DNA of 64,000 nt from Vicinamibacteria bacterium (GTDB lineage Bacteria > Acidobacteriota > Vicinamibacteria > Marinacidobacterales > Marinacidobacteraceae), in the NCBI GenBank assembly GCA_963555995.3, contig OY821641.1, positions 2,848,001 through 2,912,000 of the forward strand, in the 5' to 3' direction. The position numbers and the translations under genes were made by a program. A model generated the notes under the pieces. That model did no database searches and was not told where the DNA came from. It saw nothing but the letters and a program-made list of their open reading frames with translations. Below are positions 11,174-46,364 of this stretch, piece by piece; the stretch's first letter is position 1, and the number at the start of each line of letters is the position of its first letter.

Positions 11174-11354
11174 ACAGCCTTTGGTGAAACTCACGTGAGC
11201 GCCGAGCCCGGTGAGGCGCCCGGCTGACAAGGCGCGTGAGGGAGGAATATCGAGCGTATTTCGACCGAAACGCAACGCAGAGCGGAGCGAAGCGGAGTGT
11301 TTCAGCCGGGATGGATCGCCGGGCGAACGCCGCGTGAGTTTTGCCACAGGCTGT
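11174..11354. mobile_element. Family-A 181-bp inverted-repeat element
   Basis: acagcctttggtgaaactcacg ... cgtgagttttgccacaggctgt arms; conserved core aggcgcccggctgacaaggcgcgtgagggaggaata...gaccgaaacgcaacg. Confidence 0.85.
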
Positions 11355-11364
11355 TTACCTCGGG

Positions 11365-11760
11365 CTACCACACCTGGCAAAGGACTTCGCCGCCCACGCC
11401 GAGATGGCGCGCCTGGCGGCCCGTCATCACCCCGCGGGAGGTCGAAAGCAGGGTGACACCGAGCCCTCCCTGCGCCTTGGGAATCTTCTGGTGCGAGACG
11501 TAGACACGGGTGCCCGGCCTCGAAATGCGCTTCAGTCCACTCAGCGCGTCCCGGTTGCCGGGCAGGCGCCGCAACTTGATGCGGATCGCGTCCTGCGGCG
11601 GAGCGGAGCGGCGCTCCCAACCGTCCACGTATCCCTCCTCGTGGAGGATGCGGGCGATCTCCTCCTTCAGCTTCGACGCGGGAATCTCGACGAAGTCGTG
11701 CCGCGCCTGAATCGCGTTGCGAATCCGGGTGAGCATGTCGGCCACCGGGTCAGACCACAT
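11365..11760 (-). CDS. rpsH: 30S ribosomal protein S8
   Basis: DPVADMLTRIRNA, RISRPG.RVY, STS.GVMT, GGEV. Confidence 0.97.
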   Translation of the reverse strand: MWSDPVADMLTRIRNAIQARHDFVEIPASKLKEEIARILHEEGYVDGWERRSAPPQDAIRIKLRRLPGNRDALSGLKRISRPGTRVYVSHQKIPKAQGGLGVTLLSTSRGVMTGRQARHLGVGGEVLCQVW

Positions 11761-11772
11761 CAGCGCGCCTCC

Positions 11773-11958
11773 CTACCAACTCGCCTTGATGACGCCGGGG
11801 ATCTCCCCCGCGAGCGCCAGCTTCCGGAAGCACAGGCGGCAGAGCCCGAACTTCCGGAGATAGGCCCGGGGGCGGCCACAGCTCAGGCAGCGGTTGTAAC
11901 GCCGCACCTCGAACTTGGGCCGCTTCCTTGCCTTGGCAATGAGTGATTTCTTCGCCAA
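11773..11958 (-). CDS. rpsN: 30S ribosomal protein S14, zinc-binding type Z
   Basis: 61 aa, RC..CGR.R and CR.CFR..A..G.IPGV.KASW; TTG start. Confidence 0.96.
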
Positions 11959-11977
11959 AACCGTTTCCTCTGCTTCT

Positions 11978-12252
11978 TAACAGCCTGTGGATGAAGTGAC
12001 GTGAGTACCGAGAACGCCGAGGCGCCCGGCTGACAAGGCGCGTGAGGGAGGAATACCGAGCGTATTCCGACCGAAACACAACGCAGAGCGCCTCGTAGAG
12101 GCGCGGTTCAGGCGGGATGCATCGGCGTTCGCGTCGTTAGCGGGGCGTGAGCCCCGCGCAGACCCCGGAGCGAGAGGGATCGGGGACGGGTTCACCCGGC
12201 TCCTGTCCCTCTTGGCTCGGGAATGCCGCGTGACTTTGTCCACAGGCTGTTA
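11978..12252. mobile_element. Family-A element, long variant (271 bp between TA flanks) with an extra internal segment
   Basis: TA-acagcctgtggatgaagtgacg ... cgtgactttgtccacaggctgt-TA; same core, about 90 bp longer. Confidence 0.85.
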
Positions 12253-12262
12253 CCTCTGATGA

Positions 12263-12811
12263 CTACGCTTCCCGGCGGGCGAACGGCATCCCGAAGGCGC
12301 GGAGCAGCTCTCGCGCGTCCCCGTCGCTCGTCGCGGTCGTGCAGATGGTCACGTTCATCCCGAGCGTCCTCTCGATCTTCGAGTAGTCGATCTCGGGGAA
12401 CACGGATTGGTCCGTCAGACCCAGGGTGTAGTTGCCCCGGCCGTCGAAGGCCCGGTCCGAGACACCGCGAAAGTCGTGCACCCGAGGCAGCGCGATGTTG
12501 ATCAGCCGGTCCATGAATTCGTACATCCGGATTCCGCGCAGGGTGACCCGCGCGCCCACCGGCATGCCGTCCCGGATCTTGAAGTTGGCGATGGACTTCC
12601 GGGCCCTGGTCACCACCGGCCTTTGTCCGGTGATCGCCGTCAGGTCCGCGACCGCGGCATCAATGAACTTGTGCTCCCGCGCCCCTTCACCGACGCCCAT
12701 GTTGACGACGACCTTGGTAACCCGAGGCACGGCGTGCACGCTGGCGATCTGCAGTCGGGTGCGCAGATCGGGAGCGATGGTCTCGCGATACCGGGAACGA
12801 AGGCGGCTCAC
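12263..12811 (-). CDS. rplE: 50S ribosomal protein L5
   Basis: KVVVNMGVGE, ITGQ.P, LPRV.DFRG, FDGRGNY. Confidence 0.97.
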   Translation of the reverse strand: MSRLRSRYRETIAPDLRTRLQIASVHAVPRVTKVVVNMGVGEGAREHKFIDAAVADLTAITGQRPVVTRARKSIANFKIRDGMPVGARVTLRGIRMYEFMDRLINIALPRVHDFRGVSDRAFDGRGNYTLGLTDQSVFPEIDYSKIERTLGMNVTICTTATSDGDARELLRAFGMPFARREA

Positions 12812-13167
12812 TTGTCGATCACTCCCTGGGAACGGACGCTCACGCGAACCTTGCGTCCATCGGTCAGCCGGGTCCTCCCGATCCGCGTCGGGAGGTTGGT
12901 CTCCGGGTCCACGATGGCCACGTTGCTGATCGCGATCGAGGCTTCCCGTTCGACGACCCCGCCCTTGATGTTCGCCCGCGGGTTCGCCTTCGTGTGCCGC
13001 TTGATCATGTTGATGCCCTCGACGAGCACCCGTCCGGTCCCGGGAAAGACGCGGAGGATCCGTCCCCGCTTCCCGAGGTCGCTCCCGGCCATGATCTGGA
13101 CGAGGTCGTTCTTGCGAACGTGCAGGCGCCGGGGCGGCGGCGCGCTCTTCTTCCGGGACATCGTCAC
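12808..13167 (-). CDS. rplX: 50S ribosomal protein L24
   Basis: KOW motif [21 protein letters not shown]; start may be ATG 13161. Confidence 0.95.
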
Positions 13168-13532
13168 AGGACCTCCGGAGCGAGCGAAACGATCTTCATG
13201 AACTGGCGCTCGCGCAGCTCGCGGGCGACCGGGCCGAACACCCGGGTTCCGGTGGGCTCGCGCTGCTCGTTGATCAGCACCGCGGCGTTGTCACCGAAGC
13301 GGATGTAGGACCCGTCCGCCCGGCGGTGTTCCTTGCGGGTCCTCACGATCACCGCCTGGACGACCGTCCCCTTCTTGACCGCGCTCCCGGGCGCGGCTTC
13401 GCGGACCGAAGCGGTGATGACGTCCCCCAGCCGGGCGATACGGCCCACCCCGCCACCAAGCGGAAGAATGCAGGTGACCCGGCGGGCGCCGGAGTTGTCG
13501 GCGACCTGCAGCACCGACTGCATCTGGATCAT
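13164..13532 (-). CDS. rplN: 50S ribosomal protein L14
   Basis: [33 protein letters not shown]. Confidence 0.97.
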
Positions 13533-13774
13533 GTGGCGCGCTCCACAACCTTGAGCAGCCGGAAACGCTTGGTCCGGGAAAGCGGACGGCATTCCTCGAT
13601 CTGGACGCGGTCTCCGACCCGGCCCTCGTTCTTCTCGTCGTGGACCGCGAAGCGGGTGGACTTGCGGTAGCGACGCTTGTACAGGCGGTGTTCCACGAGG
13701 CGCTCCACGAGCACCGTGATGGTCTTTTGGGCGCCGCTGGCGACCACGGTTCCGGTCCTGATCAGTCTTGGCAT
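13529..13774 (-). CDS. rpsQ: 30S ribosomal protein S17
   Basis: KTITV.VER, HDE.N, ECRPLS.TKRF. Confidence 0.95.
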
Positions 13775-13800
13775 GACGGTTCTTCTCGTACTTACCGGCC

Positions 13801-14031
13801 TCAGGAATCCGAGGCGCCGCTCCCCGGGGAATCGGTCCCGATCTCGAGCTCGCGCTCCCTCATGATCGTCTGGAGCCGGGCGGCGTGGCGCCGCAGCATC
13901 TTGACCTTGTGCGTGTGGCCGAGCTGACCGGTAGCGGCCTCGAGCCGGGCATCGAACAGCTCCTTGGTCACTTCCTGCTGCTTCCTCACGAGTTCGTCGT
14001 GGGTCAGCTCACGAATCCGGGCGGCCTTCAC
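13801..14031 (-). CDS. rpmC: 50S ribosomal protein L29
   Basis: Size, position and ELF..R...ATGQL motif. Confidence 0.9.
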
Positions 14032-14450
14032 GACGACCCCTCCTCGAAGCGGCCGACGAACTGCGTCCGCACCGGAAGCTTGTGGCCCGCCCGGCGCATC
14101 GCCTCCATCGCCTGGTCGCGGCCGACGCCTTCCATCTCGAAGAGGATCCGTCCGGGGCGCACCACCGCGACCCAGCCTTCAGGACCGCCCTTTCCCTTGC
14201 CCATGCGCGTTTCCTGGGGTTTCTTGGTCAGCGGCTTGTCCGGAAAGATCCGGATCCAGACCCGCCCGGTCCGCTTGATGAAGCGGGTGATGGCCACCCG
14301 CGCCGACTCGATCTGGCGATTCGTGATCCACCCCGGCTCCAGCGTCTTGAGGCCGAAGTCCCCGAACGCCACGGTCTGCCCGGTCCAGGACTTGCCGCGC
14401 ATGCGGCCGCGCTGCTGTTTCCGGTACCGGGTCTTCTTCGGCATCAGCAT
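14028..14450 (-). CDS. rplP: 50S ribosomal protein L16
   Basis: [28 protein letters not shown]. Confidence 0.97.
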
Positions 14451-14481
14451 GGCGTTTCTCCTTCCGGGTCCCCTTCAGGGC

Positions 14482-15180
14482 TCAACCGGCGCTTGCCTCT
14501 TCGGAGCCGGAGGCTGATGGCTTCCTGGGGATCTCCGGACGCCCGGACCGGCTGACCATGTCGCTGACGCCCCGATAGACCCAACACTTGACCCCGATCT
14601 GCCCGTACGTCGTGAAGGCCTCGGCGAGCCCGTATTCGATGTCGGCCCGCAGCGTGTGGAGCGGGAGCTGTCCCTCCAGGTACCACTCCGCCCGCGCGAT
14701 GTCAGCGCCGTTCAGCCGCCCGGCGCACCGGATGCGGACGCCCTTGGCGCCGTTCCGCATGGTGTTCTCGACAGCCTTCCGCATCGCGCGCCGGAACGCG
14801 ATCCGCTTCTCCAGTTGGAGGGCGATGGACTCGGCGACCAACTGCGGGTCGAGCTCGGGCTTGATCACCTCGAGCGGCCGGATGTGGACTTCCTTGCCGG
14901 TGCGCTTGCGGAGGTCGCGCGTCAGCTTCTCCACCTCCGTCCCCTTGCGGCCGATGATGATTCCCGGCCTGGAGGTGTGGATGTAGATGTTGAGCTTGTT
15001 GCCCGGACGCTCGATCTCCACCCGCGAAATACCCGCGTGGTACAGGCGGCGCTTGAGAAGACGCCGCAGCTTCAGGTCCTCGTGCAGCGAGTCCCGGTAG
15101 GCGCTGTCCGCGAACCAGCGGGAGCGCCAGGTCTTGCTGTACCCGAGCCTGAAGCCGTGCGGGTGTACTTTCTGACCCAT
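14482..15180 (-). CDS. rpsC: 30S ribosomal protein S3
   Basis: [29 protein letters not shown]. Confidence 0.97.
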
Positions 15181-15182
15181 TC

Positions 15183-15542
15183 CTATTCCTCTTCCACCGC
15201 AGTCACGCGGATCGTGTAGTGGGTGGTTCGCCGCCGGATGCGACGGATACGGGCCCTCCGGCCGCTGCGGGCGATGGCCCGGGCCGGTCCCTGGTCGGCG
15301 AACGCCTCGGAAACCATGAGCTTGTCCTCATCAATCCGTTTTGCTTCGCTGAGGGCCTTCGTCTGGGCATTCGCGATCGCCGACCGCAACACCTTCTCGA
15401 TGATGGGCGCCGGCGCGCGGTTCGTGTTCTGCAACACCGAGATGGCGTCCGCCGCGGGCTTGTCGCGGATGAGGTCGAGAACGAGCCGCGCCTTCTGAAC
15501 CGAACCGGGAACCGCCGTGGCGCGGGCGACCGCTTCGATCAC
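15183..15542 (-). CDS. rplV: 50S ribosomal protein L22 with a divergent tunnel loop
   Basis: KARLV.DLIR, KVL.SA.ANA; synteny between rpsS and rpsC. Confidence 0.93.
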
Positions 15543-15570
15543 GGTGTCACCCCCGTCCGCGAGGAAAGTC

Positions 15571-15855
15571 TCATCGGCGCGCCCTCGACTTCTCGGTCTT
15601 CACCTTGTGGCCCTTGAAGGTCCGCGTTGGCGAGAACTCACCGAGCTTGTGACCCACCATGTTGTCGGTCACATAGACCGGAATGAACTTGCGGCCGTTG
15701 TGAACGGCGAAGGTCAGGCCCACCATCTGCGGAACGATCGTGGAGCGCCGGGACCAGGTCTTGATGATGGTCTGCCGGCGCGCGGTGTGCGCGTCCTCCA
15801 CCTTCCGGATCAGGCTTTCCTCGATGTACGGGCCTTTTTGAATCGAACGCGGCAT
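15571..15855 (-). CDS. rpsS: 30S ribosomal protein S19
   Basis: [28 protein letters not shown]. Confidence 0.97.
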
Positions 15856-15859
15856 TCTT

Positions 15860-15918
15860 TGGTCCTTTTGGCTCTGGTCCTTTTGGCTCTGGTCCCTTTC
15901 TGATCCCTGTTCCGATCC
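15860..15918. repeat. Short tandem repeat upstream of rpsS: two perfect 15-mers plus degenerate copies
   Basis: tggtccttttggctc x2 at 15860-15889, then tggtccctttc, tgatccctgttc, cgatcc. Confidence 0.8.
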
Positions 15919-15941
15919 TGGTGGAGTGGGGTTTCCTCGCT

Positions 15942-16775
15942 CTACCTTCTGCGGCGCCGGCGGGAGCGGACGATCATCGAGTCGGTCCGCTTGTTGTTGC
16001 GGGTCTTGTGTCCCTTGGTCGGCACGCCCCAAGGGCTCACCGGGTGGCGTCCTCCGGAGCTCTTGCCCTCGCCGCCGCCGTGGGGGTGGTCCACCGGGTT
16101 CATGGTGACTCCCCGGTTGTGCGGCCGGCGCCCGAGCCAGCGCTTGCGGCCGGCCTTGCCGAGCTTCACGTTCTCGTGGTCCACGTTGGAGACCTGACCG
16201 ATCGTGGCGTGGCACTCGCGCAGCACCTTGCGGACCTCGCCGGAAGGAAGGCGCACCTGCGCGTAACGCCCCTCCTTGGCGACCAGTTGCACGAACGCAC
16301 CGGCGCTGCGCGCCATCTTGCCGCCGCCCCCGGGCCGGAGCTCGACGTTGTGAATCGTGGCGCCCAGCGGGATGCGGTCTATGCACAGCATGTTTCCGGG
16401 CGCGATCTCGGCGCTGTCGCTCGCCATCACCACGTCGCCGAGCTTCATCCCGACGGCGTGCAGGATGTACCGCTTGTCTCCGTCGAGATAGTGAAGCAGC
16501 GCGATCCGGGCCGAGCGGTTCGGGTCGTACTCGATGGACGCCACACGTCCGGGCACCCCGGGTTTCGCCCGCCGGAAATCAATCTCCCGGTGGCGCCGCT
16601 TGTGGCCGCCGCCCCGGAAGCGGACCGTGATGCGCCCGGCGGTGTTCCGCCCGCCGCGCTGGCTCTTCCCGCGGGTCAGCCGCTTCTCCGGCGTGGTGGT
16701 CGTGAGCTCCTCGAACGTCTGGACGGTGTGGAACCGGCGTCCGGGGGAGGTCGGCCGGGATTTCTTGATCGCCAT
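15942..16775 (-). CDS. rplB: 50S ribosomal protein L2
   Basis: [25 protein letters not shown]. Confidence 0.98.
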
Positions 16776-16790
16776 CTAAGTGCCCCTCAC

Positions 16791-17081
16791 CTACACGCCC
16801 TTGAAGATCTCGATGGCGTGGCCCTCCTCGAGGGTCACGTACGCCTTCTTCCAGTTGGGGCGCCGGCCGACGAAGCGGCCCCAGCGCTTGTTCTTTCCCG
16901 TGAAGTTGGAAGTGCGGACATCCTTGACTTCCACCTCGAAGAGACTCTCCACGGCGCGGCGGATCTGGATCTTGTTGGCCTTCGGGCTCACCCGGAAGGC
17001 GACGACGTTCTGGGTTTCCCGAAGGCGCTCCGCCTTTTCGGTGGTGAGCGGTTCGAGGATGACGCGGTCGGCTTCCATCAT
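16791..17081 (-). CDS. rplW: 50S ribosomal protein L23
   Basis: P..TEK, ANK..I..AVE..F.V.V, WKKAYVTL. Confidence 0.96.
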   Translation of the reverse strand: MMEADRVILEPLTTEKAERLRETQNVVAFRVSPKANKIQIRRAVESLFEVEVKDVRTSNFTGKNKRWGRFVGRRPNWKKAYVTLEEGHAIEIFKGV

Positions 17082-17794
17082 CGGCCCCCTGCCTCAGCGC
17101 CCCCTGCTTCGGAGAGCTTTTCGGACAGCGCGGCGAGCGCGGAACGCCGGATCAGCACGGTCTTCGCCTTGAGTACCTCGTAGCAGTGCAGCGCCATCAC
17201 CGAGACCACTTCGACCGCCGGCAGGTTCCTCGTCGACAGGTAGAGGTCGTCGGACGGCGCCGTCTCCACGATCAGGACGCGTCCGCCCGCCGAGTCCCAT
17301 TCGCCGAGGCGCCGGAGCACCGCTCGGGTGGAGGGTCCCTCGAGACCGAAGTCCTCGAAGACGCGCAACCGCCCTTCGCTCGCGCACAGCGAGAGCGCGG
17401 AGCGGAGCGCGCCGCGCTGCATGCGGCCCGGCAGCCGATAGCTGTAGTCGCGGGGCTGTGGTCCGAACACGGTCCCGCCGCCCCGCCACAACGGGGTGCG
17501 GCGGCTTCCGACCCGCGCGTTGCCGGTGCCCTTCTGCCGCCACGGCTTGCGGCCGCCGCCGGCGACGAGCGCGCGGTTCTTCGTCGCGTGGGTCCCGGCG
17601 CGGCGTCCGGCCATGTACTGGCGGACGGCGTCGTAGTGAAGGCCCGGCTTCACCGGCGCCGCGAAGACCGTCGGATCGAGTTCCACTTCGCCGCCTTCGG
17701 CATCACGGGCGACCACGGATGCACCGCGCCCCTCCGAGCCTTCGGCCCCGGGTGCGCCTTCCGCCGGAAGCGCCTCTTGCTCTGCCACGGTCAC
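17078..17794 (-). CDS. rplD: 50S ribosomal protein L4 with an N-terminal extension
   Basis: R.GTH.TK.R, GGGRKPWRQKGTG.AR.GS, GGG..FGP.PR; start uncertain (GTG 17794 or 17788). Confidence 0.93.
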   Translation of the reverse strand: MTVAEQEALPAEGAPGAEGSEGRGASVVARDAEGGEVELDPTVFAAPVKPGLHYDAVRQYMAGRRAGTHATKNRALVAGGGRKPWRQKGTGNARVGSRRTPLWRGGGTVFGPQPRDYSYRLPGRMQRGALRSALSLCASEGRLRVFEDFGLEGPSTRAVLRRLGEWDSAGGRVLIVETAPSDDLYLSTRNLPAVEVVSVMALHCYEVLKAKTVLIRRSALAALSEKLSEAGGAEAGGR

Positions 17795-17844
17795 TCTCGT
17801 TCTTCCTGTTCGGGTCGGTGGTTCTCTCGCGTCGGTTTCTCTCG

Positions 17845-18474
17845 TCAGGCCTTGCGAATCTCGACGGTCCCGCCGCGGGGGCCGGGGACGGCGCCGCGTA
17901 CCGCGACCACGTTCTCCTGCGCATCCACCCGAACGATCCGGAGGTTCCGGACCGTCACGCGTTCCCGGCCGTGCTGGCCGGGAAGCCGGGTGCCCGGGAG
18001 CACCCGTGAGGGGGTTGCGCACATCCCGATGGCGCCCGGAGCGCGGTGGAACTTGGAGCCGTGCGACTTCGGGCCGCCGTGGAAGCCGTGCCGCTTCATC
18101 ACGCCGGCGAAGCCCTTGCCCTTGCTGACTCCGGTGACCCGGACCACGTCGTCCGGAGCGAACACCTCGGCGCCGAGCCGGGAACCGATGGCCAGGTCTT
18201 CGCCAGAATCCGCCTGAAACTCGCGCAGCACCGAGGCGGACGGGGCTCCGGCAGCCTGCAGCCGGGCGGCGAGCGCCCGGTTGCGGGCGGGGCGGCTTCC
18301 CGGGCCGCTCAGCCGCTCCAGGCCGACCTGAACGGCTTCGTATCCGTCCGCGCCCACCGTCTTCTTCTGGACGACGACGCAGGGGCCCACCCGGATCAGG
18401 GTGACCGGAATCACCCGGCCGTCGTCCCCGAAGTGCTGGGCCATCCCCAGCTTCGTGCCCAGCAGTCCGTTCAT
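17845..18474 (-). CDS. rplC: 50S ribosomal protein L3
   Basis: [31 protein letters not shown]. Confidence 0.97.
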
Positions 18475-18500
18475 GGTCCTTCCTCCGCGGTTCCCGTTCC

Positions 18501-18833
18501 CTACTTGACCTGCGGCTCGCCGGCGACCATCGCCTTGATCTCGACATGGACGCCGGCCGGAAGATCCAGCCGCGACAACGCATCAACCGTCGTCGGCGTG
18601 GACCCCAGGATGTCGAGGAGGCGCTTGTGCGTGCGGAGTTCGAACTGCTCCCGCGACTTCTTGTCCACGTGCGGGGAGCGAAGAACGGTGTAGCGGTTCT
18701 TGACCGTCGGCAGCGGAATCGGGCCGGCCACCGTGGCGCCGGTCCGCTTCGCCGTCTCCACGATCTCGCTGGTGGACTGGTCCAGCAGGCGGTGATCGAA
18801 CGCCTTGAGTCGGATGCGGATCTTTTCGTTCAT
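18501..18833 (-). CDS. rpsJ: 30S ribosomal protein S10
   Basis: [35 protein letters not shown]. Confidence 0.98.
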
Positions 18834-18870
18834 CGGTTGAAACTCGCTTCGGCGTTCCCGTGCGGCCCCG

Positions 18871-20943
<2,073 letters not shown>

Positions 20944-35990: not shown

Positions 35991-36174
35991 TGCGGGCCGT
36001 GGGCGGGGTGACGTGAGCGCCGAGAGCGGTGAGGCGCCCGGCTGACAAGGCGCGCGAGGGAGGAATACCGGGTGTATTCCGACCGAAGCGCAACGATGAG
36101 CGCCGCTGCAGCGGCGCGGTTCAGCCGGGATGGATCGCCGCTCGAACGCCGCGTCACCCCGTTTACGGCCCGCA
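35991..36174. mobile_element. Family-A element with re-written but still complementary terminal arms
   Basis: Core matches family A; arms tgcgggccgtgggcggggtgacg / cgtcaccccgtttacggcccgca. Confidence 0.8.
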
Positions 36175-37025: not shown

Positions 37026-37087
37026 GCGCCGGCCTGGAACGCCGGCCTCCAGACCGGCACGCGCGGCGCTCCGCGCCGCGCACCTCG
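37026..37087. repeat. REP-like repeat (family B2)
   Basis: ggaacgccggcctccagaccggcacgcgcggcgctccgcgccgcgcac, reverse complement of the 60241 unit. Confidence 0.75.
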
Positions 37088-37132
37088 TAACCCCACGCAC
37101 CCTGACGGCGCCCACGGCCTGGAACGCCCCGG

Positions 37133-37969
37133 CTACGGACCGCCAACGTCCTCGCGCGCCCCACCCCCAGACCCACCAGCGCGCTGGCGGACCCCTTCGT
37201 AGAGCACGATCCCGGCAGCCACGGAGACGTTCAGGGAACGGACGGAGCCCAACTGCGGCAGCGAGACCAGGACCTCGCACTCCTTCGACACCCCGGCGGC
37301 GAGGCCCCGGCCCTCGGACCCCACGACGAGGACGGTGGGCTGGGTCCAGTCGAACTCGTACCAGCGGACCTTCGCCCGCGGGGTGAGGCCGACGGTCCAG
37401 TACCCGTGAGCCTTGAGCGCCCGCAGCGCGCTCGCGGCGCCCGGGATCCGAACCAGCCGGGCGCGGGCGATGGCCCCCGCCGACGCCGCGACGGCGACGG
37501 CCGAGGGAGGAGCCGCGCCGCGCCGCGGAACGAGCACCGCATCCACTCCGGCGCCGTCCGCCGCCCGGACCAGAGCGCCGAAGTTCCGGGGGTCCTCGAT
37601 GCGATCGAGGAGCAGCAGGCGGCTCGGCTTCGGGTCCAGCGACAGCATCTCGCCAAGCGCCAGCCACCGCACCGGCGACACCTCGCAGGCCGCGCCCTGA
37701 TGGCGCGCTCCCGCCGCGATCCGGTCGAGGTGCTGATTCGGTACCCGCTGCAGCGGGGCGCCGCGGGCCCGCGCGATCTTGAGCAGGGCCTGATGGCGGC
37801 TCTCCAGCCGTCCCGTCCGGACCAGCACCCGCCGGACCTGGTTCGGGATCCCCTGGAGCGTTTCCTCCACCCGGGCGGGACCGAAGACCCAGGTCGCGGC
37901 CCGTTCCGCGCCCGTTTCGTCCGCCGGAGGGCCGGCCCTCGCCGGACGGCGCTGCTCGCGGCGGGTCAT
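37133..37969 (-). CDS. rlmB: TrmH/SpoU family RNA methyltransferase, 23S rRNA Gm2251 RlmB-like
   Basis: HQG, LD.IEDPRNFGA..R.A, GSEG.G and SLNVSVAAG motifs; ATGA overlap with ispDF. Confidence 0.88.
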   Translation of the reverse strand: MTRREQRRPARAGPPADETGAERAATWVFGPARVEETLQGIPNQVRRVLVRTGRLESRHQALLKIARARGAPLQRVPNQHLDRIAAGARHQGAACEVSPVRWLALGEMLSLDPKPSRLLLLDRIEDPRNFGALVRAADGAGVDAVLVPRRGAAPPSAVAVAASAGAIARARLVRIPGAASALRALKAHGYWTVGLTPRAKVRWYEFDWTQPTVLVVGSEGRGLAAGVSKECEVLVSLPQLGSVRSLNVSVAAGIVLYEGVRQRAGGSGGGAREDVGGP

Positions 37970-39216
37970 CCCGGAGGGGATGCCGGTCCCGGCACCCCTG
38001 ACCGCGGATCGAGACGGACGAGAGCCTTCGCCGCCAGCCCCTCGCCCCTTCCCGTGAAGCCCATGCCGTCGGTGGTGGTCGCCTTGAGACCCACCGCGTC
38101 CGGGGCGATGCCGAGCATGGCGCCGAGCCGCCGCCGCATCTCCTCGATCCGGGGAGCGAGCCGGGGACGCTCGGCGATGATGGTGAGGTCCACCTGGCCC
38201 GGCCCATGGCCGGCGGCGGCGGCGATTTCGAGCGCCCGCCGCACGAACCGTTCGCTCGCCGCGCCCCGCAGCGCCGGGTCGGACGACGGGAAGAGCGCCC
38301 CGATGTCCGGCCCGGCGACCGCGCCCAGGATGGCGTCGGCGAGGGCATGCAGGACCGCGTCCCCGTCGGAGTGTCCTTCCAGCGAAGGAACGCCCGGAAA
38401 CGCGATTCCCCCCAACTGGAGGGTTCCGGCCGTCCCGAAGCGGTGCGCGTCGAATCCGAACCCGATGCGGGGCATCCCGGAGACCCCGCCGAGGACGGTT
38501 CGCGCGAACTCCAGGTCGGCCGGGTGGGTCACCTTCAGGTTCCGGGAACTCCCCTCGACCACCCGCACCGGATGTCCCGCGGCCCGGACCAGCGACGCCT
38601 CGTCGGTCCCGCGCAGTCCGGCTTCCTCCGCCCGGGCGAGCGACTCCCTGAGCAGGCGCCGCCGGAAACACTGCGGTGTCTGCACGGCGACGGTGCGGTC
38701 CCGGTCCACCAGGCTCTCCACGTTGCCGTCAACGCTCACCCGCCAGAGCGTGTCCGGCGAGCGGCGCCCCGGGATCGCGGCGCCGTGGCGGCGGGCCGCC
38801 TCGATGACTTCTTCAACAAGCGGCAGCGGCGGCGCCGGCCTCGCCCCGTCGTGGACGGCGACCAGATCCGCGACCGCACCGTCTTCTTCCTCGAACCGCG
38901 CGTCGAGCGCCGCGAGTCCGCGCGTAACCGATTCCTGCCGGGAAGCGCCGCCGGGACAGCAGGAAACCCGGCCCGCGTCCGGCTCCAGATGACGGCCGAG
39001 GTCCGCCTGCCAGGATTCGAATCCCCGCTCCGGCAGGACGACCACCAGCCGCGCGACCTGCTCCGAAGCCAGCACCGCGCGGACGGAATGAACGACCAGC
39101 GGCAGGCCGAGGACCGGCTGGAACTGCTTCGGAGCGTCGCCGGCACCGAACCGGGCGCCGGAACCGGCGGCCACGACGACCGCGCCAACCCGCACGGTGA
39201 TCCGTTCCTCTGCCAC
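37966..39216 (-). CDS. ispDF: Bifunctional IspD/IspF
   Basis: AAGSGARFG..PKQF, VHDGARP, QTPQ; then GFGFDAH, GHSDGD..LHA..DA.LGA, DIG..F. Confidence 0.93.
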   Translation of the reverse strand: MAEERITVRVGAVVVAAGSGARFGAGDAPKQFQPVLGLPLVVHSVRAVLASEQVARLVVVLPERGFESWQADLGRHLEPDAGRVSCCPGGASRQESVTRGLAALDARFEEEDGAVADLVAVHDGARPAPPLPLVEEVIEAARRHGAAIPGRRSPDTLWRVSVDGNVESLVDRDRTVAVQTPQCFRRRLLRESLARAEEAGLRGTDEASLVRAAGHPVRVVEGSSRNLKVTHPADLEFARTVLGGVSGMPRIGFGFDAHRFGTAGTLQLGGIAFPGVPSLEGHSDGDAVLHALADAILGAVAGPDIGALFPSSDPALRGAASERFVRRALEIAAAAGHGPGQVDLTIIAERPRLAPRIEEMRRRLGAMLGIAPDAVGLKATTTDGMGFTGRGEGLAAKALVRLDPRSGVPGPASPPG

Positions 39217-39222
39217 CGGCTC

Positions 39223-40608
39223 TCAGGACTCGCCGATGGCCGCCAGCGCCTCGTCGAGGGTCGCGACCGCGACGAGAGCGATGTCCGCCGGCGGTTCGGC
39301 CGCGCGGGCCTTGCCCGGATTCATCACCGCGCGGCGGTACCCGAGGCGCGCCGCCTCCCGCAGGCGCACCCCCGCCTGATGGACCGGCCGCACCTCTCCG
39401 GAGAGTCCGACCTCACCGATGAAGAGGGTCCCCGGCGGCACCGGGACGCCGCGTCGCCGGGAAGCCACCGCCGCGAGGAGGCCCAGGTCGGCGGCCGGTT
39501 CGTTCACGGTGAGGCCGCCGGTCACCGACACGTACACGTCGCTGCGCAGCAGTCCTCCCCCTCCTCCCGTCTCGAGGACCGCCAGCAGCACCGCCAGCCG
39601 GCCGCTGTCGAACCCCACCGGAACCCGCCGCGGATAGGCGAGCGGGCTCTCGGCGAGCAGCACCTGGATCTCGGCGAGGAGGGGCCTCGTTCCCTCGAGC
39701 GTACAGACCACCGCCGATCCAGGCTTCGGGGGTCCCCCGGTGAGGAACAGTTCCGAGGGATTCCGAACCGGGACGAGTCCCTCTCCGGTCATGTCGAACA
39801 CGCCGAGTTCCCCGGCGGCGCCGAACCGGTTCTTGACCGCGCGGAGCAGCCGGTGCGACTGCCTCCGGTCCCCTTCGAAGTGCAGCACGGTGTCCACCAT
39901 GTGTTCGAGCGTGCGGGGGCCGGCGATGGCGCCGTCCTTGTTGACGTGGCCGATGATGAAGACGGGAACCCGGGTCGCCTTGGCGAACAGCACGAGCGCG
40001 GCGGCCGACTCCCGAACCTGGGTGACGGTACCCGGGGCGCCGCTGATCTCCGGAGAGTGGACGCACTGGACGGAATCGAGCACCACGAGCTGCGGTTCCG
40101 CGGACTGCGCCGCGTCGAGGATGCGGGGCATGCTCGTCTCCGAGAAGAGGAGGAGCGAGTCCGGCTGGAGTCCGAGCCGCTCGCCGCGCAGCTTGAGCTG
40201 GTGCTCGGACTCCTCCCCGCTGACGTAGAGCACGGGGGCTCCGGAACCGGCGGCCGCGGCGGCCAACTGGAGGAGGAGGGTGCTCTTGCCCGCGCCCGGC
40301 TCTCCCGCGACCAGAACGGCGGAGCCGGGCACCACCCCGCCGCCCAGGACGCGGTCGAGTTCCGGAATGCCCAGCGGACGGCGGGGCGCCGTCCGGGTGT
40401 CCACCTCGTTCCAGGAGACCGGCGCCGCGGCCCCGGCGCCCGCCGCCGCGGCGAACCCGCGCCAGCGTCCGCCGGCGGCGCCTTCCGGCGGCGCCTCCTG
40501 TTCGACGAGCGGCGTCCGGGAGGAACAGGACGGGCAGTACCCCATCCAACGGGAGAAGTCCTGCCCGCACTCCACGCAGGCGAAGCGAACATTGGAGTTC
40601 CTGGGCAC
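39223..40608 (-). CDS. radA: DNA repair protein RadA/Sms
   Basis: CxxC...CPxC zinc finger, GEPGAGKSTLLLQ, KNRFG. Confidence 0.96.
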   Translation of the reverse strand: MPRNSNVRFACVECGQDFSRWMGYCPSCSSRTPLVEQEAPPEGAAGGRWRGFAAAAGAGAAAPVSWNEVDTRTAPRRPLGIPELDRVLGGGVVPGSAVLVAGEPGAGKSTLLLQLAAAAAGSGAPVLYVSGEESEHQLKLRGERLGLQPDSLLLFSETSMPRILDAAQSAEPQLVVLDSVQCVHSPEISGAPGTVTQVRESAAALVLFAKATRVPVFIIGHVNKDGAIAGPRTLEHMVDTVLHFEGDRRQSHRLLRAVKNRFGAAGELGVFDMTGEGLVPVRNPSELFLTGGPPKPGSAVVCTLEGTRPLLAEIQVLLAESPLAYPRRVPVGFDSGRLAVLLAVLETGGGGGLLRSDVYVSVTGGLTVNEPAADLGLLAAVASRRRGVPVPPGTLFIGEVGLSGEVRPVHQAGVRLREAARLGYRRAVMNPGKARAAEPPADIALVAVATLDEALAAIGES

Positions 40609-40612
40609 CGGC

Positions 40613-42007
40613 TCACCAACCGGTTTCCTCGTCCGGATCGGGATAGTCGGCGCCCTCGCCCGCCTCCTCCAGGTTCTGGAACTTCGTGTAGCGATCGAGC
40701 CAGGCCAGCCGGACGTCACCCACCGGACCGTTGCGGTTCTTCGCGACGATCACCCGGCGCACGGGGGGCGACGGCGCTTCGATCCCTCCCGTTCCGTCCT
40801 GTTTCTTTTTCCATTCCCGGTGAATGAAAACGACGATGTCCGCGTCCTGCTCGAGAGCGCCGGACTCGCGCAGATCGGAGAGGCGCGGCGCCGTCAGCGC
40901 CCCGGTCCGCTGTTCCGGCGCCCGGCTGAGTTGGGAAAGCGCCAGGATCGGCACCTCGAGTTCCTTGGCCAGCAGTTTGAAGGACCGGCTGATCTCGGCG
41001 ATCTCCAGATTCCGGTTTTCGAAGCGCCGGGATCCGGGCTCCGACGCCCGCATCAATTGCAGGTAATCAATCACGATCAGATCGAGTCCGTGTTCCCGCT
41101 TCAGTTGACGCGCCTTGGACCGCAGTTCGACCGGAGTGACGTTCGAATCGTCCACGTAGATCGGCATGCGCGCGACGACCGGAAGCGTGTTCTGGATAAG
41201 CCGGCGATCCCGCTCGCTGAGCAGTCCGGGCCGCGAGAGCTGCCGGGCATCCACCTCCGCCTGGGAGAAAAGCAACCGGGTGGCGATCTGCCGGCGGGGC
41301 ATCTCCAGGCTGAAGATGAGCACCCGCTTGTCGGCGCGGCCGGCGGCCAGCGCAATGTTGAGCGCCAGGCTGGTCTTGCCCTCCCCGGGGCGGGCCCCGA
41401 CCAGGATCAGGTCCGACTCGCGGAGGCCTCCCATCAGGTTGTCGAGGTCCTGGAATCCGGTGCGGATCCCCGAGAACCCCTCCCGCTGGCGGCCGGACTC
41501 CTCGGCGAGTTGGCCCAGGTCCTCCGTGAGCCGCACCGGACCGGAGGCGAACGTCCCCTCCGCAATGGCGTACAGGCCCTCCTGGGCCGCGGAGAGGGTC
41601 TCCCGCGGGGAGTCCCGGATCGCGTCGCTGGCGAGGCGGCTGCCGAAGTGGTGGAGCTCCCGACTGAGCGCCCGTTCGCGAACGAGCCTCGCGTAGTCCG
41701 CCGCGTTCGAGGAACGAGCCACCCCGTCCGACAGCTCGCTCAGGTAGCCGGCGCCGCCGGCCGCGTCCAGCTTCCCGGTCCGCTCGAGTTCCGCGCGAAC
41801 GGTCAGCAGATCGATCTTCCGCAGTTCGGGGGCGTCGTCGAGTTCGCAGAAGGCGTCGAAGATCCGCTGGTGGCGAACATCGAGGAAGTCCCTGGTCTTC
41901 AGGACCTCCCGCACCGAATCGAGCTGACTCCGGTCCACCAGGACCGCGGCGAGCACCGCTCGTTCGGCGGCCAGGTCGTGCGGGAGGCGGACGGCTTCGT
42001 CCGGCAC
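40613..42007 (-). CDS. dnaB: Replicative DNA helicase
   Basis: ARPG.GKT, FSLEM, IDYLQL, LSQLSR, DLRESGALEQDAD, KNRNG. Confidence 0.97.
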   Translation of the reverse strand: MPDEAVRLPHDLAAERAVLAAVLVDRSQLDSVREVLKTRDFLDVRHQRIFDAFCELDDAPELRKIDLLTVRAELERTGKLDAAGGAGYLSELSDGVARSSNAADYARLVRERALSRELHHFGSRLASDAIRDSPRETLSAAQEGLYAIAEGTFASGPVRLTEDLGQLAEESGRQREGFSGIRTGFQDLDNLMGGLRESDLILVGARPGEGKTSLALNIALAAGRADKRVLIFSLEMPRRQIATRLLFSQAEVDARQLSRPGLLSERDRRLIQNTLPVVARMPIYVDDSNVTPVELRSKARQLKREHGLDLIVIDYLQLMRASEPGSRRFENRNLEIAEISRSFKLLAKELEVPILALSQLSRAPEQRTGALTAPRLSDLRESGALEQDADIVVFIHREWKKKQDGTGGIEAPSPPVRRVIVAKNRNGPVGDVRLAWLDRYTKFQNLEEAGEGADYPDPDEETGW

Positions 42008-42022
42008 GGACAGACGCCTCGC

Positions 42023-42207
42023 TAGCAGCCGGTGGTGAAACCCACGTGAGCGCCGAGACGGGCGAGGCGCCCGCCTGACAAGGCGCGTGAGGGAGGAATA
42101 CCGAGTGTATTCCGACCGAAACGCAACGATGAGCGCCTCGCAGAGGCGCGGTTCAGACGGGATGCATCGCGCGTCGAACGCCGCGTGGGTTTGGCCACAG
42201 GCTGCTA
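42023..42207. mobile_element. Family-A element at a CTAG site
   Basis: cTA-gcagccggtggtgaaacccacg ... cgtgggtttggccacaggctgc-TAg; 181 bp between the TA dinucleotides. Confidence 0.85.
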
Positions 42208-42298
42208 GGGGTCTTGGGTTGAGGGAGCGGAGCGGCTCAGCCGGAGTCCGTCATGACGGGGCCGCGTGACGTCTTCCACGGGCTGCTCCGGGCGGGGT

Positions 42299-42666
42299 TA
42301 ACAGCCTGTGGTGAAACCCACGTGAACGCCGAGACGGGCGAGGCGCCCGGCTGACAAGGCGCGTAACGGCCTGTGGTGGAACTGACGTGAGCATCGAGAA
42401 CGGCGAGGCGCCCGGCTGACAAGGCGCGTGAGGGAGGAATACCGGGTGTATTCCGACCGAAACGCAACGATGAGCGCCTCGCAGAGGCGCGGTTCCGGCG
42501 GGATGCATCGCTGTTCGAATGCCACGTGAGTTTCACTACAGGCTGTTGCAGGAGGAATACCGGGTGTATTCCGACCGAAACGCAACGCAGAGCGCCTCGC
42601 AGAGGCGCGGTTCCGGCGGGATGCATCGCGCGTCGAACGCCGCGTGGGTTTTGCCACAGGCGGTTA
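42299..42666. mobile_element. Nested pair of family-A elements (42366-42546 inserted inside 42301-42664)
   Basis: The outer copy breaks after caaggcgcgt and resumes at ggaggaatac after a complete inner copy; its right end overlaps the rplI stop codon. Confidence 0.85.
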
Positions 42667-43248
42667 ATCCTCCGAGTCGTCCGTTTCCCCGGAGGAGGCG
42701 GCGGCGACGGCCTCATCATCGTCGGACTCGGCATTGTCGGCCCGCTTCGCCGACACCTCCGTCGGGATGTCCGGTACCGGCTCCACTCCAAGCGACCCGG
42801 CGGCGACCGGGGACACCTCGATCGGGAGATCCACCTCGATCTCGCTGTGGAGCCGGACCACGGCCGACGCCTGGCCCGCCACCTTGATCGGGCCGCCGAG
42901 GATGATGCGGTTGCGGGCGATCTCGAACCCGCCCGCAGCGAGCTCCCGCGCAATGTCCTGGACCGACACCGAGCCGTAGAGCTCGTTGGAATCGGTCTTG
43001 ACCCGGCGCTCGAAACGGAGGGTCCGGCCCTCGAGGGAACGGGCGAGCGCCTCGGCGGCTTCCCGTTCCTTGATCCGCTCCACGGCCCAGACTTTTCTCG
43101 CCTCGGCGACTTCCCTCCGGTTCTCGTCCGTGATCGGAACCGCAATCCGGCGGGGAAGCAGGTAGTTCCTCGCGTACCCCGGACGGACGTTGACTTCGTC
43201 GCCCGGTTCCCCCAGGGCGTCCACGGGCTGTTTCAGCAGCAGGCGCAT
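42664..43248 (-). CDS. rplI: 50S ribosomal protein L9 with an acidic C-terminal tail
   Basis: LG..GD.V.V.PGYARNYLLP and LYGSV motifs. Confidence 0.95.
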   Translation of the reverse strand: MRLLLKQPVDALGEPGDEVNVRPGYARNYLLPRRIAVPITDENRREVAEARKVWAVERIKEREAAEALARSLEGRTLRFERRVKTDSNELYGSVSVQDIARELAAGGFEIARNRIILGGPIKVAGQASAVVRLHSEIEVDLPIEVSPVAAGSLGVEPVPDIPTEVSAKRADNAESDDDEAVAAASSGETDDSED

Positions 43249-43268
43249 GGCTCTTTCCCCGCCGGCCC

Positions 43269-43514
43269 CTATTCGTAGGGCAGGAGCGCCATCTGCCGGG
43301 CGCGCTTGATGGCGATCCGGATCTGGCGCTGGGCCCGGGCGCCGGCGCGCGACACGCGCCGCGGGGCGATCTTGGCGCGATCACCGAGGAACTCGCGCAG
43401 AAAGTCCACGTCCTTCCAGTCCACCCGGTCCACGCCGTTCAGCAGTGGATTGACGCGCACCCGCCGGACGTTCTGCCGGCGGCGGCGGCGCGGGGTCGCG
43501 GGCCTGTCGCTCAT
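43269..43514 (-). CDS. rpsR: 30S ribosomal protein S18, non-zinc type
   Basis: VDWKD...L, KI.PRR, QR....AIKRAR.MALLPY. Confidence 0.93.
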
Positions 43515-44233
43515 GATGTCTCCTCCTCATTCCGGGGGGATCCGTCCGGTGGCGCTGCCTCTCCGGCGCCGTCGGGCTCCCCGGCGGCGGCTTCCTTCGT
43601 GGCGCCAGCGTCCTCAGCCGCTGGTTCGGCCGGCTTGGCGGCAGCCTCACCAGACTTCCCGGCCGTCTCTGCGGACGGCTCGGCGGCAGCCCCGCCGGAC
43701 TCTCCGGACGGCCTGGCGGCAGCCTCGCCAGATTTTCCGGACGCTTCTCCAGCCGGCTTGGCGGCGGTCTCGGCAGCCTCCCCGGCCGCTTCTTCCGCCG
43801 CCTTGGCGGCGGCCTCGGCAGCCGCGGCGGCCGCGCGGGCGGCTCGCTCCTCCCGCCGGCGGAGGTCGGCGGCCTGGTCGCGTTCGCGGGTTTCCTTGTC
43901 GGTCCGCAGCACGATGAAGCGCAGCACGCCCTCGGCGAGGCGGACGCGGTTCTCGATGCCCCGGATGGAAGCCGGGGGCGCATCGAAGTAACAGAGGATG
44001 TAGAGGCCTTCATGGTGCCCGGCGATGGGGTACGCCAGCCGCCGCCGCTCCCAGGGTTTCAGGCTGACGACCTCGCCTCCCTGCCCCTTCACGATGCCCT
44101 CCACGCGCTCGACCACCGCAAGGGAAGCCGCGTCGTCGAGGGTCGGATCCAGAATGAACATGAACTCGTAGCCGTTCATGAGGGAATCCGGTGGGGGCGG
44201 AGCCGCCGTTTGGGGACTCGACTGTTCGTTCAT
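43511..44233 (-). CDS. rpsF: 30S ribosomal protein S6 with a long Ala/Glu-rich tail
   Basis: [23 protein letters not shown]; start may be ATG 44179. Confidence 0.92.
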
Positions 44234-44306
44234 TCGAGAGTGTCTCCAGCGTCACCGGTGACGCACCCCGCAGGGAACCGTGCGGGAATCTGCGGAAGGT
44301 TCCGCA

Positions 44307-45017
44307 TCATGCAGCCGCCCGGTTGAACCGGTTCATGGCAGTTTCGATCCCCTGCCCGACCGCGGTTTCGATGGCCCGCACCGCACGCTCCAGCAGATCC
44401 TCCACGGAAGCGGCCTCCTGGGGGGCGAAGTGAGAAAGCACGAAGTCAGCCGGATCTTCCCCCGCCGGGGGATTCCCGATCCCGAGGCGCATCCTGGGGA
44501 TCTCGTCCGTTCCGAGCGCGGACAGGATGGACGCGAGGCCGTTGTGACCCCCGTCGCTGCCGCGGCGGCGGGTCCTGATCGTTCCGAGCGGCAGTGCGTA
44601 GTCGTCGCACACGATGAGGGTCTCCTCCGGCGAACGGCGCTCGCTCTCCAGCAGCCGCCGCACCGGACCGCCGCTCCGATTCATGTAACCCATGGGACGC
44701 AGCAGGCCGATGTCGCGGCCGGCGATCTCGGCCTCGACGAGGAGGCCCCCGTCGAAGTGCCGGGTCCGAACCGACCCGTCCCCGAGGAGCGCGGCAACGG
44801 CGTCGAACCCGATGTTGTGCCGGGTCCCCTCATACCGGACCCCCGGATTGCCGAGCCCCACCACGAGCTGCACGGGAACCTCGACGCGAGCCGGAGTCTC
44901 GTGCGGCGACCCGCCGGCGGCGCCGCCGGGTACGCCCGCAGGGGGATCGCTCACCACGGTCGCCGGCCACGGCGCGGCGTGGGAACCGGGGCCGGGGGGA
45001 AGAGGACTGGGCAACAC
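44307..45017 (-). CDS. pth: Peptidyl-tRNA hydrolase
   Basis: VGLGNPG..Y..TRHNIGF, YMN.SG, GGHNGL.SI, FVLS.F; the true start may be GTG 44873. Confidence 0.92.
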   Translation of the reverse strand: MLPSPLPPGPGSHAAPWPATVVSDPPAGVPGGAAGGSPHETPARVEVPVQLVVGLGNPGVRYEGTRHNIGFDAVAALLGDGSVRTRHFDGGLLVEAEIAGRDIGLLRPMGYMNRSGGPVRRLLESERRSPEETLIVCDDYALPLGTIRTRRRGSDGGHNGLASILSALGTDEIPRMRLGIGNPPAGEDPADFVLSHFAPQEAASVEDLLERAVRAIETAVGQGIETAMNRFNRAAA

Positions 45018-45041
45018 GCTGGATCAGAAGGGTTCCGCCGG

Positions 45042-45665
45042 TCACTCTTCCGGTTCGTCGGCTGCTTCTTCTTCACTTTCGTCTTCCTGCTCGGCCTCTT
45101 CCGTTCCCTTCGGGGGAGAGACATGCACGATGACCACGTCCCGCTCCGTCGCGAGGGTCAGCCCCTCCGGCAGTTCGATGTCCGCCGCCCGGACGGTGTC
45201 CCCGTAGTCGAGCTCGCCGACGGCGAGCGGCAGGAACTCCGGAATGTCGTGCGGCAGGCAACTGACGGTGAGAGAGCGGCTGATGAAGTCCAGGTGGCCG
45301 CCGCGCTTGACACCCACGGACTCGCCCTCGAGGTGAACGGGAACGTGCCAGTCCGAAGCCCGGTCCGGGTCCACCCGCATGAGGTCCGCGTGCAGGACGG
45401 AATGATCGAGCGGATGCAGTTGGTAGTCGTGGATCATCACCTGCTCCACGCTCTCCTCGCCGTCAATCTCGAGCGAGAAGATGGTGTTCACCCCCCGCGG
45501 CGACCGAACGATGTCGGTGACGTGGCGCGGTGAGACGGTGAGCGAACGGGAGCCGGCGGAGCCGCCGTAAACGACCGCCGGAATCATCCCGGCCGCCCGC
45601 AGACGGCGGTTCGGCCCCTTGCCGACGGCAGTGCGGGAACTCGCGGGGATCGAGAGCTGAGCCAT
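45042..45665 (-). CDS. rplY: 50S ribosomal protein L25/Ctc
   Basis: GK...RRLR..G.IPAVVYG, H.D, GVK.GG, CLP..IPE. Confidence 0.94.
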   Translation of the reverse strand: MAQLSIPASSRTAVGKGPNRRLRAAGMIPAVVYGGSAGSRSLTVSPRHVTDIVRSPRGVNTIFSLEIDGEESVEQVMIHDYQLHPLDHSVLHADLMRVDPDRASDWHVPVHLEGESVGVKRGGHLDFISRSLTVSCLPHDIPEFLPLAVGELDYGDTVRAADIELPEGLTLATERDVVIVHVSPPKGTEEAEQEDESEEEAADEPEE

Positions 45666-45850
45666 GGAGTGTGCGTGGGGTTGTTCGGGTGGGACAGGGT
45701 GGCGCGGAGGCCCGGGAACGGGAAGACGTGACGCGCGCGGCGTCGTCCTCGAAGGTCCCTCTCGGCGGGCTCCGAGGGAGTGCGACCCAGGAAGTCCGGC
45801 GGATGTCGCCCGAGCGCCATCCACTCCTCAGCGGCAATGCAGGGCGCGAG

Positions 45851-45859
45851 AGTCTAGCA
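45851..45859 (-). promoter_or_regulatory. Possible extended -10 promoter for rplY
   Basis: Minus strand TG-C-TAGACT about 185 bp upstream of the rplY ATG. Confidence 0.35.
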
Positions 45860-45985
45860 GCCCGACCACCGCTCCCGCGCCTGCGAATTCCCGGCGGCGC
45901 ACCGGTTGCTGGGCAAAGGCGCGCTCCCGGCCGCCCGGATGGCGCGCCGGCCGGGACCGCCGGCCGGTTCTCGCGGTAGCGGCCT

Positions 45986-46364
45986 TAACAGCCTGTGGCA
46001 AAACCCGCGCGGCGTTCGAGCGGCGATGCATCCCGCCTGAACCGCGCCTCTACGAGGCGCTCTGCGTTGCGTTTCGGTCGGAATACGCCCGGTATTCCTC
46101 CCTCACGCGCCTTGTCAGCCGGGCGCCTCACCGCTCTCGGCGCTCACGTGGGTTTCACCACAGGCTGTTAACAACCTGTGGCAAAACCCGCGCGGCGTTC
46201 GAGCGGCGATGCATCCCGCCTGAACCGCGCCTCTACGAGGCGCTCTGCGTTGCGTTTCGGTCGGAATACGCCCGGTATTCCTCCCTCATGCGCCTTGTCA
46301 GCCGGGCGCCTCGCCGCTCTCGGCGCTCACGTGGGTTTCACCACAGGCTGTTAACAGCCTGCGG
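45986..46364. mobile_element. Head-to-tail tandem of two family-A elements in reverse orientation, plus an end stub
   Basis: TA-[45988-46168]-TA-[46171-46351]-TA-acagcctgcgg; units nearly identical. Confidence 0.88.

Follow-up and report, generated by a model that had tools for sequence, protein, structure and literature searches.

How does a short piece of DNA with no gene of its own come to lie, time and again, between the genes of a bacterium, and what does selection see in it? The question was raised by a 64,000-nucleotide stretch of a Vicinamibacteria bacterium genome (GenBank assembly GCA_963555995.3, contig OY821641.1, positions 2,848,001 to 2,912,000; this whole stretch is what we call the window), in which copies of one non-coding element sit beside ribosomal-protein genes. 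A preliminary description of the window had suggested that the element might be a mobile structured RNA rather than a plain MITE (a miniature transposable element bounded by inverted repeats). Our own answer is a 179-bp MITE, likely moved by an IS1182-like transposon, whose copying likely depends on the fold of one strand, probably as single-stranded DNA, around a core that it shares with other elements. Taken whole, we rate this reading a little above an even bet.

Copies in the window and the rest of the genome place the ends of the unit at CAG and CTG, 179 bp apart, with a 4-bp target duplication of the form YTAR outside them. Paired terminal arms of about 23 bp, the lack of a transposase gene inside the unit and the many copies are what one looks for in a MITE. 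The preliminary description counted eight full copies of about 181 bp. All eight starts do belong to one family, but the unit is 179 bp and only five of the eight are plain copies: the one begun at 11980 is a 269-bp variant, that at 35991 is a diverged copy of 180 bp, and that at 42301, taken for a full contiguous copy, is split by the one at 42366. The window therefore reads as follows, counted from its first base.

11175 to 11353, plus strand: MITE copy of 179 bp, flanked by TCAA and TTTA, in the gap between rplF (L6) and rpsH (S8), antisense to the operon.
11981 to 12249, plus strand: long variant of 269 bp, flanked by TTAA and TTAC, in the gap between rpsN (S14) and rplE (L5).
35993 to 36172, plus strand: diverged copy of 180 bp, in the gap between tuf and a tRNA gene.
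42026 to 42204, plus strand: MITE copy of 179 bp with a CTAG/CTAG duplication, in the gap between dnaB and rplI.
42302 to 42364, plus strand: 5' part of an outer copy, 63 bp, split by a nested insertion.
42367 to 42545, plus strand: inner nested copy of 179 bp, inside the core of the outer copy, with 183 bp added in total.
42548 to 42663, plus strand: 3' part of the outer copy, 116 bp, terminating at the rplI stop codon.
45989 to 46167, minus strand: MITE copy of 179 bp, flanked by TTAA and TTAA, in the gap between prs and rplY, sense to the operon.
46064 to 46115, minus strand: conserved core within the preceding copy, found in every full copy.
46172 to 46350, minus strand: tandem copy of 179 bp; the TTAA at 46168-46171 is common to both tandem copies.

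The long variant is the unit plus a 90-bp insert of additional hairpins, and the diverged copy has had its end sequences rewritten with their complementarity kept. The two parts of the outer copy sum to 179 bp. The core itself consists of an AAG/CA internal loop, a short stem, a bulge, tandem GA pairs and an apical stem with a 5-nucleotide loop. A profile built from six window copies and run over the 3.8-Mb genome gave 129 hits, 82 of them near full length, at 110 loci. Paired ends lie at one exact distance in 70 cases and at a distance 90 bp longer in 8. Structure and variants were studied in the 75 ungapped copies among the 82, which comprise 70 distinct sequences.

What could move such an element? 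The search for an autonomous relative with the same termini, recommended in the preliminary description, turned up three identical 1515-bp insertion sequences (ISs) in this genome. The IS begins and ends with a 15-mer identical to the 5' 15-mer of 23 of the 70 distinct MITE copies, and it encodes a protein of 475 amino acids with DUF772 and DDE_Tnp_1 domains, in which a D149/D298/E363 triad is invariant across 70 aligned sequences. Its best NCBIfam match is NF033551 (IS1182), at 146 bits against a cut-off of 270, with IS5 models scoring lower; given that score, we class it as IS1182-like and go no further. A comparison of the transposase with Protein Data Bank sequences gave nothing at E<=1. 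Going by the sequence of the ends, its transposase likely moves the MITE. The two have little else in common: BLAST found no match between the MITE interior and the IS, and the core was inside none of 100 IS loci, the six hits all falling in flanking DNA. We also came across an internally deleted derivative of the IS, without the core (G000 C1 3647893-3648235), a broken relative of the transposase (G000 C1 2718294-2719107) and, in 7 of 88 cases (L331, L332, L336, L339, L350, L351 and L248), an IS adjoining the end of another element with a 4-bp flank in common.

The flanks had been described as TA. They turn out to be a 4-bp target duplication, which is exact in all three partner IS copies (two of the three non-palindromic) and in 64 of 88 related ISs, mostly as YTAR. 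In the MITE it is exact in 35 of the 75 ungapped copies, in 24 of the 31 youngest and in none of the 15 oldest. A two-base TA duplication around a 181-bp unit was considered and is ruled out by the partner IS, with its GTAA/GTAA and TTAG/TTAG flanks, and by the young copies. Because the IS shows 4-bp duplications, the outermost change from A:T to G:C in the MITE is the difference between a TTAA and a CTAG target, and this terminal 'covariation' is target duplication. One of the three compensatory examples first put forward, acagcc/ggctgt versus gcagcc/ggctgc, dissolves in this way, being the innermost base of the palindromic target. Sixteen non-palindromic cases are informative, of which 11 fit paired ends only, 3 fit duplication only and 2 fit neither.

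Inside the target, the pairing is of a different kind. The 70 distinct copies have a predicted shape of a rod with a three-way junction, more stable than any of 200 shuffles (z of -8.4 as RNA and -6.1 as DNA), and in all 70 the same strand is the more stable one, whether folded as RNA or as DNA. Across 63 pairs in these copies, the cells of the paired columns are Watson-Crick in 3991 cases, G·T in 325, A·C in 27 and of another kind in 67. The bias towards G·T in the element's own orientation, noticed at the outset and present in either orientation to the host genes, is thus plain (325 against 27). Two of the three early examples also stand as truly compensatory: ctcacg/cgtgag versus cccacg/cgtggg, at pair 18-164 (CG in 39 copies, TA in 30), and gcgcctc/gaggcgc versus gcgccgc/gcggcgc, at pair 114-120 (TA in 42, GC in 23, CG in 4). 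We counted covariation by parsimony on a maximum-likelihood tree, excluding two flank-derived pairs, which leaves 61. There were 47 two-sided events that kept a pair, on 24 of the 61, and 50 co-changes on the same branch, against 5.9 expected with a random partner and 15.5 with a rate-matched one (0 of 5000 trials). By a count that uses no tree, 29 pairs have additional Watson-Crick types, 39 in all. The early proposal that selection acts on a folded single strand is supported by these counts.

Might the wobble pairs simply have come with the ends? Positions 2-16 of the IS ends hold 39 G·T and 51 A·C, with no net bias to G·T; position 12 is the only one there with the MITE's wobble (16 versus 1), and at position 14 the 63 pairs of IS ends have A·C in 34 cases, the 70 MITEs in none. 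Because the patterns differ, the bias of the MITE was not inherited from the IS. A broader version of the same doubt is that this is an ordinary MITE under no structural selection, its paired changes being due to a few founders, to template switching between the arms or to gene conversion. There is a partner IS, the tree has clear subfamilies, and 14 Watson-Crick pair types occur singly, in 12 copies, some of them two-sided, as template switching predicts; nested composites with differing outer arms also suggest exchange between copies. Template switching, however, would remove G·T too, yet several pairs are fixed as G·T, and A·C has not become fixed. By the preliminary description's own terms, its reading would fall if the ends matched a known IS exactly and founders lay behind the paired changes. 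The ends do match exactly; founders do not account for the changes (50 against 15.5). We regard an ordinary MITE as improbable, for these reasons and for two that follow: the asymmetry between G·T and A·C is confined to variants that have multiplied, and the core is conserved across phyla, whereas a hairpin just as central varies strongly.

When does selection act? Here the frequency of variants is informative. Non-canonical pair types seen in a single copy number 15 G·T, 12 A·C and 33 others, while those seen in at least four copies number 14, 1 and 3 (G·T to A·C, 15:12 versus 14:1, Fisher p=0.015). The core, taken as positions 53-104 with the apical loop left out, has 0.34 singleton variants per column against 0.49 elsewhere (p=0.21). 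For variants in four or more copies, the figures are 0.06 and 0.55 (p=6e-7), and a McDonald–Kreitman-like comparison of singleton with shared variants, core against elsewhere, gives a Fisher p of 0.003. Hairpin 105-128, equally central, has 0.79 shared variants per column to the core's 0.06. Private mutations thus look neutral, but the variants that multiplied spare the core and the pairing, so selection likely acts at copying. The fold and the core are likely needed for making new copies rather than for serving the host in place.

It could be argued that it is the host that selects the fold where it lies, for mRNA processing, stability or termination, or because an insertion is tolerated only if folded away. 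At the 56 loci with co-directional flanking genes, the folding strand runs antisense to them in 37 cases and sense in 19 (p=0.02), and such a bias in operons, 37:19, is something selection by the host would produce, as is the persistence of inner flank pairs in old copies. Effects of ERIC and Correia repeats on mRNA are, moreover, on record (available text of PMC2229807). Set against this are the neutral look of private mutations in both arms and core, the ease with which both orientations are found and the emptiness of the sites: at each of the two places in the spc operon, those of the 11175 and 11981 copies, 14 of 16 genomes in the genus have no insertion, and the 11981 site is filled in G006 by a different variant. 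We give selection in place little chance.

The harder choice is between DNA and RNA. A side hairpin closes on a loop of the form C-GNA-G in 57 of the 70 copies, with all four bases found at N, where the genome background for such triloops is 15%; in divergent subfamilies it shrinks to a bare GCGAAGC. According to the available text of PMC13037366, GNA is the only one of 64 triloops to form a DNA mini-hairpin, its RNA counterpart GCGAAAGC is much weaker, and GNA-type loops are found at sites where single-stranded DNA is primed. A folded DNA strand with a G:T skew has a precedent in integron attC sites (PMC5027507, in the part available). From the loop we infer a lean towards folded single-stranded DNA over RNA, one that shifts the balance moderately. 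The alternative has a transcript of the G·U strand, whether from read-through or from a promoter of its own, binding a protein through the core and so promoting copying, by tethering the transposase, by forming an R-loop or by serving as a template for reverse transcription. Covariation and variant frequencies fit RNA equally well, and 74% of the unpaired positions are purines. RNA commonly has fixed G·U pairs and tandem GA loops. Correia and ERIC transcripts are, furthermore, processed by RNases (PMC2229807, from the text available). The 179-bp unit has, on the other hand, no GNRA or UNCG loop, its side loop being C-GNA-G; its folding strand runs antisense to flanking genes at those 37 of 56 loci (p=0.02); and its 4-bp duplication fits integration by a DDE transposase. 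The suggested search of Rfam (release 15) found only tRNAs in the window, and nothing below E 0.06 in 12 core loci. With an intact DDE IS that has the same ends and target, and a loop that leans to single-stranded DNA, the structured RNA first proposed in place of a MITE gives way, and we consider a functional RNA fold rather unlikely. RNA run X16 yielded element-like contigs, which carry no strand, ends or level and come from a strain without either spc copy.

How, then, might a MITE copied through a folded DNA strand work? The transposase would read the 15-bp ends by their sequence. At some step of transposition one strand would become single-stranded and fold into the rod, the paired ends forming its base. 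The core, at the tip, would be a cis-acting site for a host factor, such as a priming, protecting or end-pairing activity; we think of the host rather than the transposase because the core is missing from the IS and rides between the ends of many families. Once inserted, copies would decay neutrally.

Several observations weigh against this picture. Among the 15 oldest copies the inner two flank bases are paired in 15 and 14, and the outer two in 3 and 6; such inner pairing is beyond what plain neutral decay explains. Terminal branches of the tree carry 57 G·T to 16 A·C, an excess that we ascribe to recurrent shared variants, and recombination between copies may inflate the counts that use a tree, though not the tree-free one. 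No bias between leading and lagging strand is seen (44:48), though the replication origin is poorly defined, with 54% of genes on the inferred leading strand. The GNA loop is one inherited feature of a lineage, with ANA in its place in 8 of the 70 copies, and across phyla such loops are not enriched (8 forward and 5 reverse in 143). Several of the fixed G·T pairs would fit RNA no less well. As for the transposase, matching ends are by themselves circumstantial evidence, and a search at E<=1e-40 detected it in just 3 of the 15 other genomes of the genus, many of them fragmented, when the MITE is in all 15.

The core has taken us well beyond one genome. A 22-position pattern run over GTDB genomes matched at least 121 stretches, and 80 titles among the matches listed include Desulfobacterota, Pseudomonadota, Streptomyces, Bacillota, Acidobacteriota, Gemmatimonadota, Myxococcota, Rokubacteria and one metagenome-assembled genome of Bacteroidota. 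Since the pattern itself prescribes the invariant boxes, these say nothing of conservation. The apical pair, which the pattern left free, is complementary in 79 of these 80 and in all 40 of the additional loci that were labelled. Of the 73 loci whose flanks were long enough, 55 have the core enclosed by an inverted repeat, as have 2.5% of shuffles; the ends are of many types, and the core strand is the more stable one at 67 of the 73. The covariation score of 67 short cores is 0.376, against 0.122 when shuffled and at most 0.084 when slid. With a short model, R1, the core turns up in 15 of 60 further genomes from the phylum, though the calibration of both R1 and a second model, R2, is rough. 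Viral contigs gave 44 hits; many are chance, because the apex is unpaired in 14 of the 41 labelled. Order-level relatives carry the core between different, CTAG-bounded ends. Closer to home, a second MITE family of six copies (G000 C1 62845-63030 and five more) has the same core between CTAG-TGTGG ends; no partner IS was identified for these six. The elements L067, L095, L109, L115, L119 and L130 measure about 270-320 bp and have long inverted repeats, and L115 appears to have a second core-like module with another apex.

Among known repeats, the MITE most invites comparison with Correia elements (CREE or NEMIS), which are likewise small, bounded by terminal inverted repeats (TIRs), intergenic and able to fold 5' to 3'. 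Built without Neisseria loci, R1 scored five of five 107-bp elements with TATAG ends at 28-37 bits on the same strand, in a test that is partly circular, the Neisseria loci having been found by the same pattern and R1 including betaproteobacterial relatives. Two of the five (L102 and L124) are labelled as Neisseria. We presume these elements to be Correia from their host, size and ends (PMC2229807). Correia elements are AT-rich, lack the side hairpin and use a TA target in place of the 4-bp YTAR; with neither the Neisseria TIR, nor TA ends, nor a length of 107 or 155 bp, our MITE is not one of them. Fainter is the likeness to the 127-bp rods of Escherichia coli K-12, which we presume to be ERIC. 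These carry both core boxes and a similar apex, and the box strand folds better in 13 of 13. R2, built without enterobacteria, matched 8 of the 13 at the expected position and on the expected strand, with E values from 2e-4 to 1.8 in 41 kb, and missed 5; its top match in the whole E. coli chromosome (E 0.0014) is another ERIC-type copy. The short model R1 detected no ERIC-type copies in E. coli. ERIC (or IRU) differs in that its middle stem is longer, its apical loop has 4 nucleotides, its 3' box is one base larger and its ends are others, and the MITE has neither its 127-bp unit nor its ends.

RUP and IS630-Spn1, as described in the available text of PMC2229807, are closer in their relationship: a non-autonomous element with ends in common with a resident IS, a target duplication and intergenic sites. 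Unlike that pair, the partner here is IS1182-like, the interior is unrelated to the IS, and structural selection is specific to one strand. With attC the analogy is one of working only, one strand being favoured through G:T pairs, with purine-rich loops and often a GAA tip (PMC5027507, available part); attC has a tyrosine recombinase and RYYYAAC/GTTRRRY boxes, where the MITE has DDE-type ends and a duplication. The same features point away from REP/REPIN sequences, with their tetranucleotide-tagged REPs and linked Y1 (RAYT) transposase. Stem-loop MITEs with IS-like ends were already known (accessible text of PMC2229807, PMC3184786 and PMC10969869), and compensatory change has been reported in bcr1 (PMC3184786, likewise). 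We found no description of a core common to several MITE families in the literature searched, which left aside the primary ERIC, CIR and Correia papers, subscription papers and supplements. None was found in the available parts of PMC3184786, PMC10969869, PMC11602168 or bioRxiv 10.64898/2026.10.21.760802, although motif clusters in the preprint could contain it.

Judged from sequence, then, the core occurs in at least eight phyla, within MITEs whose ends are unrelated, among them the Correia elements of Neisseria and, more weakly, ERIC of E. coli. A bolder idea, possible but one we hold tentatively, is that many bacterial MITEs, Correia and ERIC among them, would not be insertion sequences in decay but a single parasite of ancient origin. 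Its essence would be a single-strand core whose fold engages some host machine; this core would have taken over the ends of unrelated IS families again and again, and would be copied through a single-stranded step. No such step figures in the models of DDE transposition now in use. For decades it has been an open question how ERIC, Correia and repeats like them move, and a review of 2008, in the text available, gives mobilization by transposases as without experimental support (PMC2229807). If copying needs a shared, strand-specific core, that core would tie these repeats together and would imply that MITEs spread with the help of a host factor and through a single-stranded step. This genome offers what the classic cases lack, namely copies that are young, and a transposase that is intact, present in several copies and flanked by identical ends, which makes the mechanism testable: core, wobbles and loop can all be mutated in one assay.

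Where the copies lie also departs from first impressions. None of the 110 loci is inside any of the 2861 genes called, and a stop codon adjoins 27 of 84 full loci; insertion is into YTAR, which in a genome of 70% GC is often a stop codon. The ribosomal operons had been thought colonized. The window holds 5 of the 110 loci against a genome mean of 1.9 per 64 kb, but 5 of 59 such tiles have at least five, and gaps adjoining the window's 35 ribosomal-protein genes are filled in 4 of 42 cases against 106 of 2818 other gaps (Fisher p=0.08), so the claim is not supported; the window contains no rRNA operon. The MITE family is present in all 15 other genomes of the genus and in 24 of 30 relatives, the transposase being detected in 6 of 30. 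The host is probably an acidobacterium associated with a sponge, to judge from a close element (L071) and from run labels. Reads aligned to a 20-kb stretch showed no empty-site joint among the matches listed.

Some smaller observations remain. At four loci (window 42302-42663; G000 C1 278029, 861651 and 2494262) one copy is nested in the core of another at the identical point, with differing outer arms. Excising 183 bp from these composites gives back 179 bp; the inner flanks are AA and TT, the target is not YTAR, and the outer core is disrupted with the inner one intact. A decayed 3' half of the element (42220-42287) and a short end stub (46355-46364) lie beside full copies. At 11160-11370, the copy has inserted between the GAGG Shine-Dalgarno sequence of the empty allele and the rplF start; in both filled alleles (G000 and G011) a G-to-T change at position 8 creates AAAGG 9-11 nucleotides upstream of the ATG, possibly a replacement ribosome-binding site. 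Other repeats share the window: five tandem 85-bp units (60179-60648) and dispersed REP-like palindromes (2702, 22307, 22489, 37022, 51438, 51577 and 60027), of a family distinct from the MITE. The S6 gene at 43511-44179 is called at 222 amino acids, with a long low-complexity repeat tail following the S6 domain.

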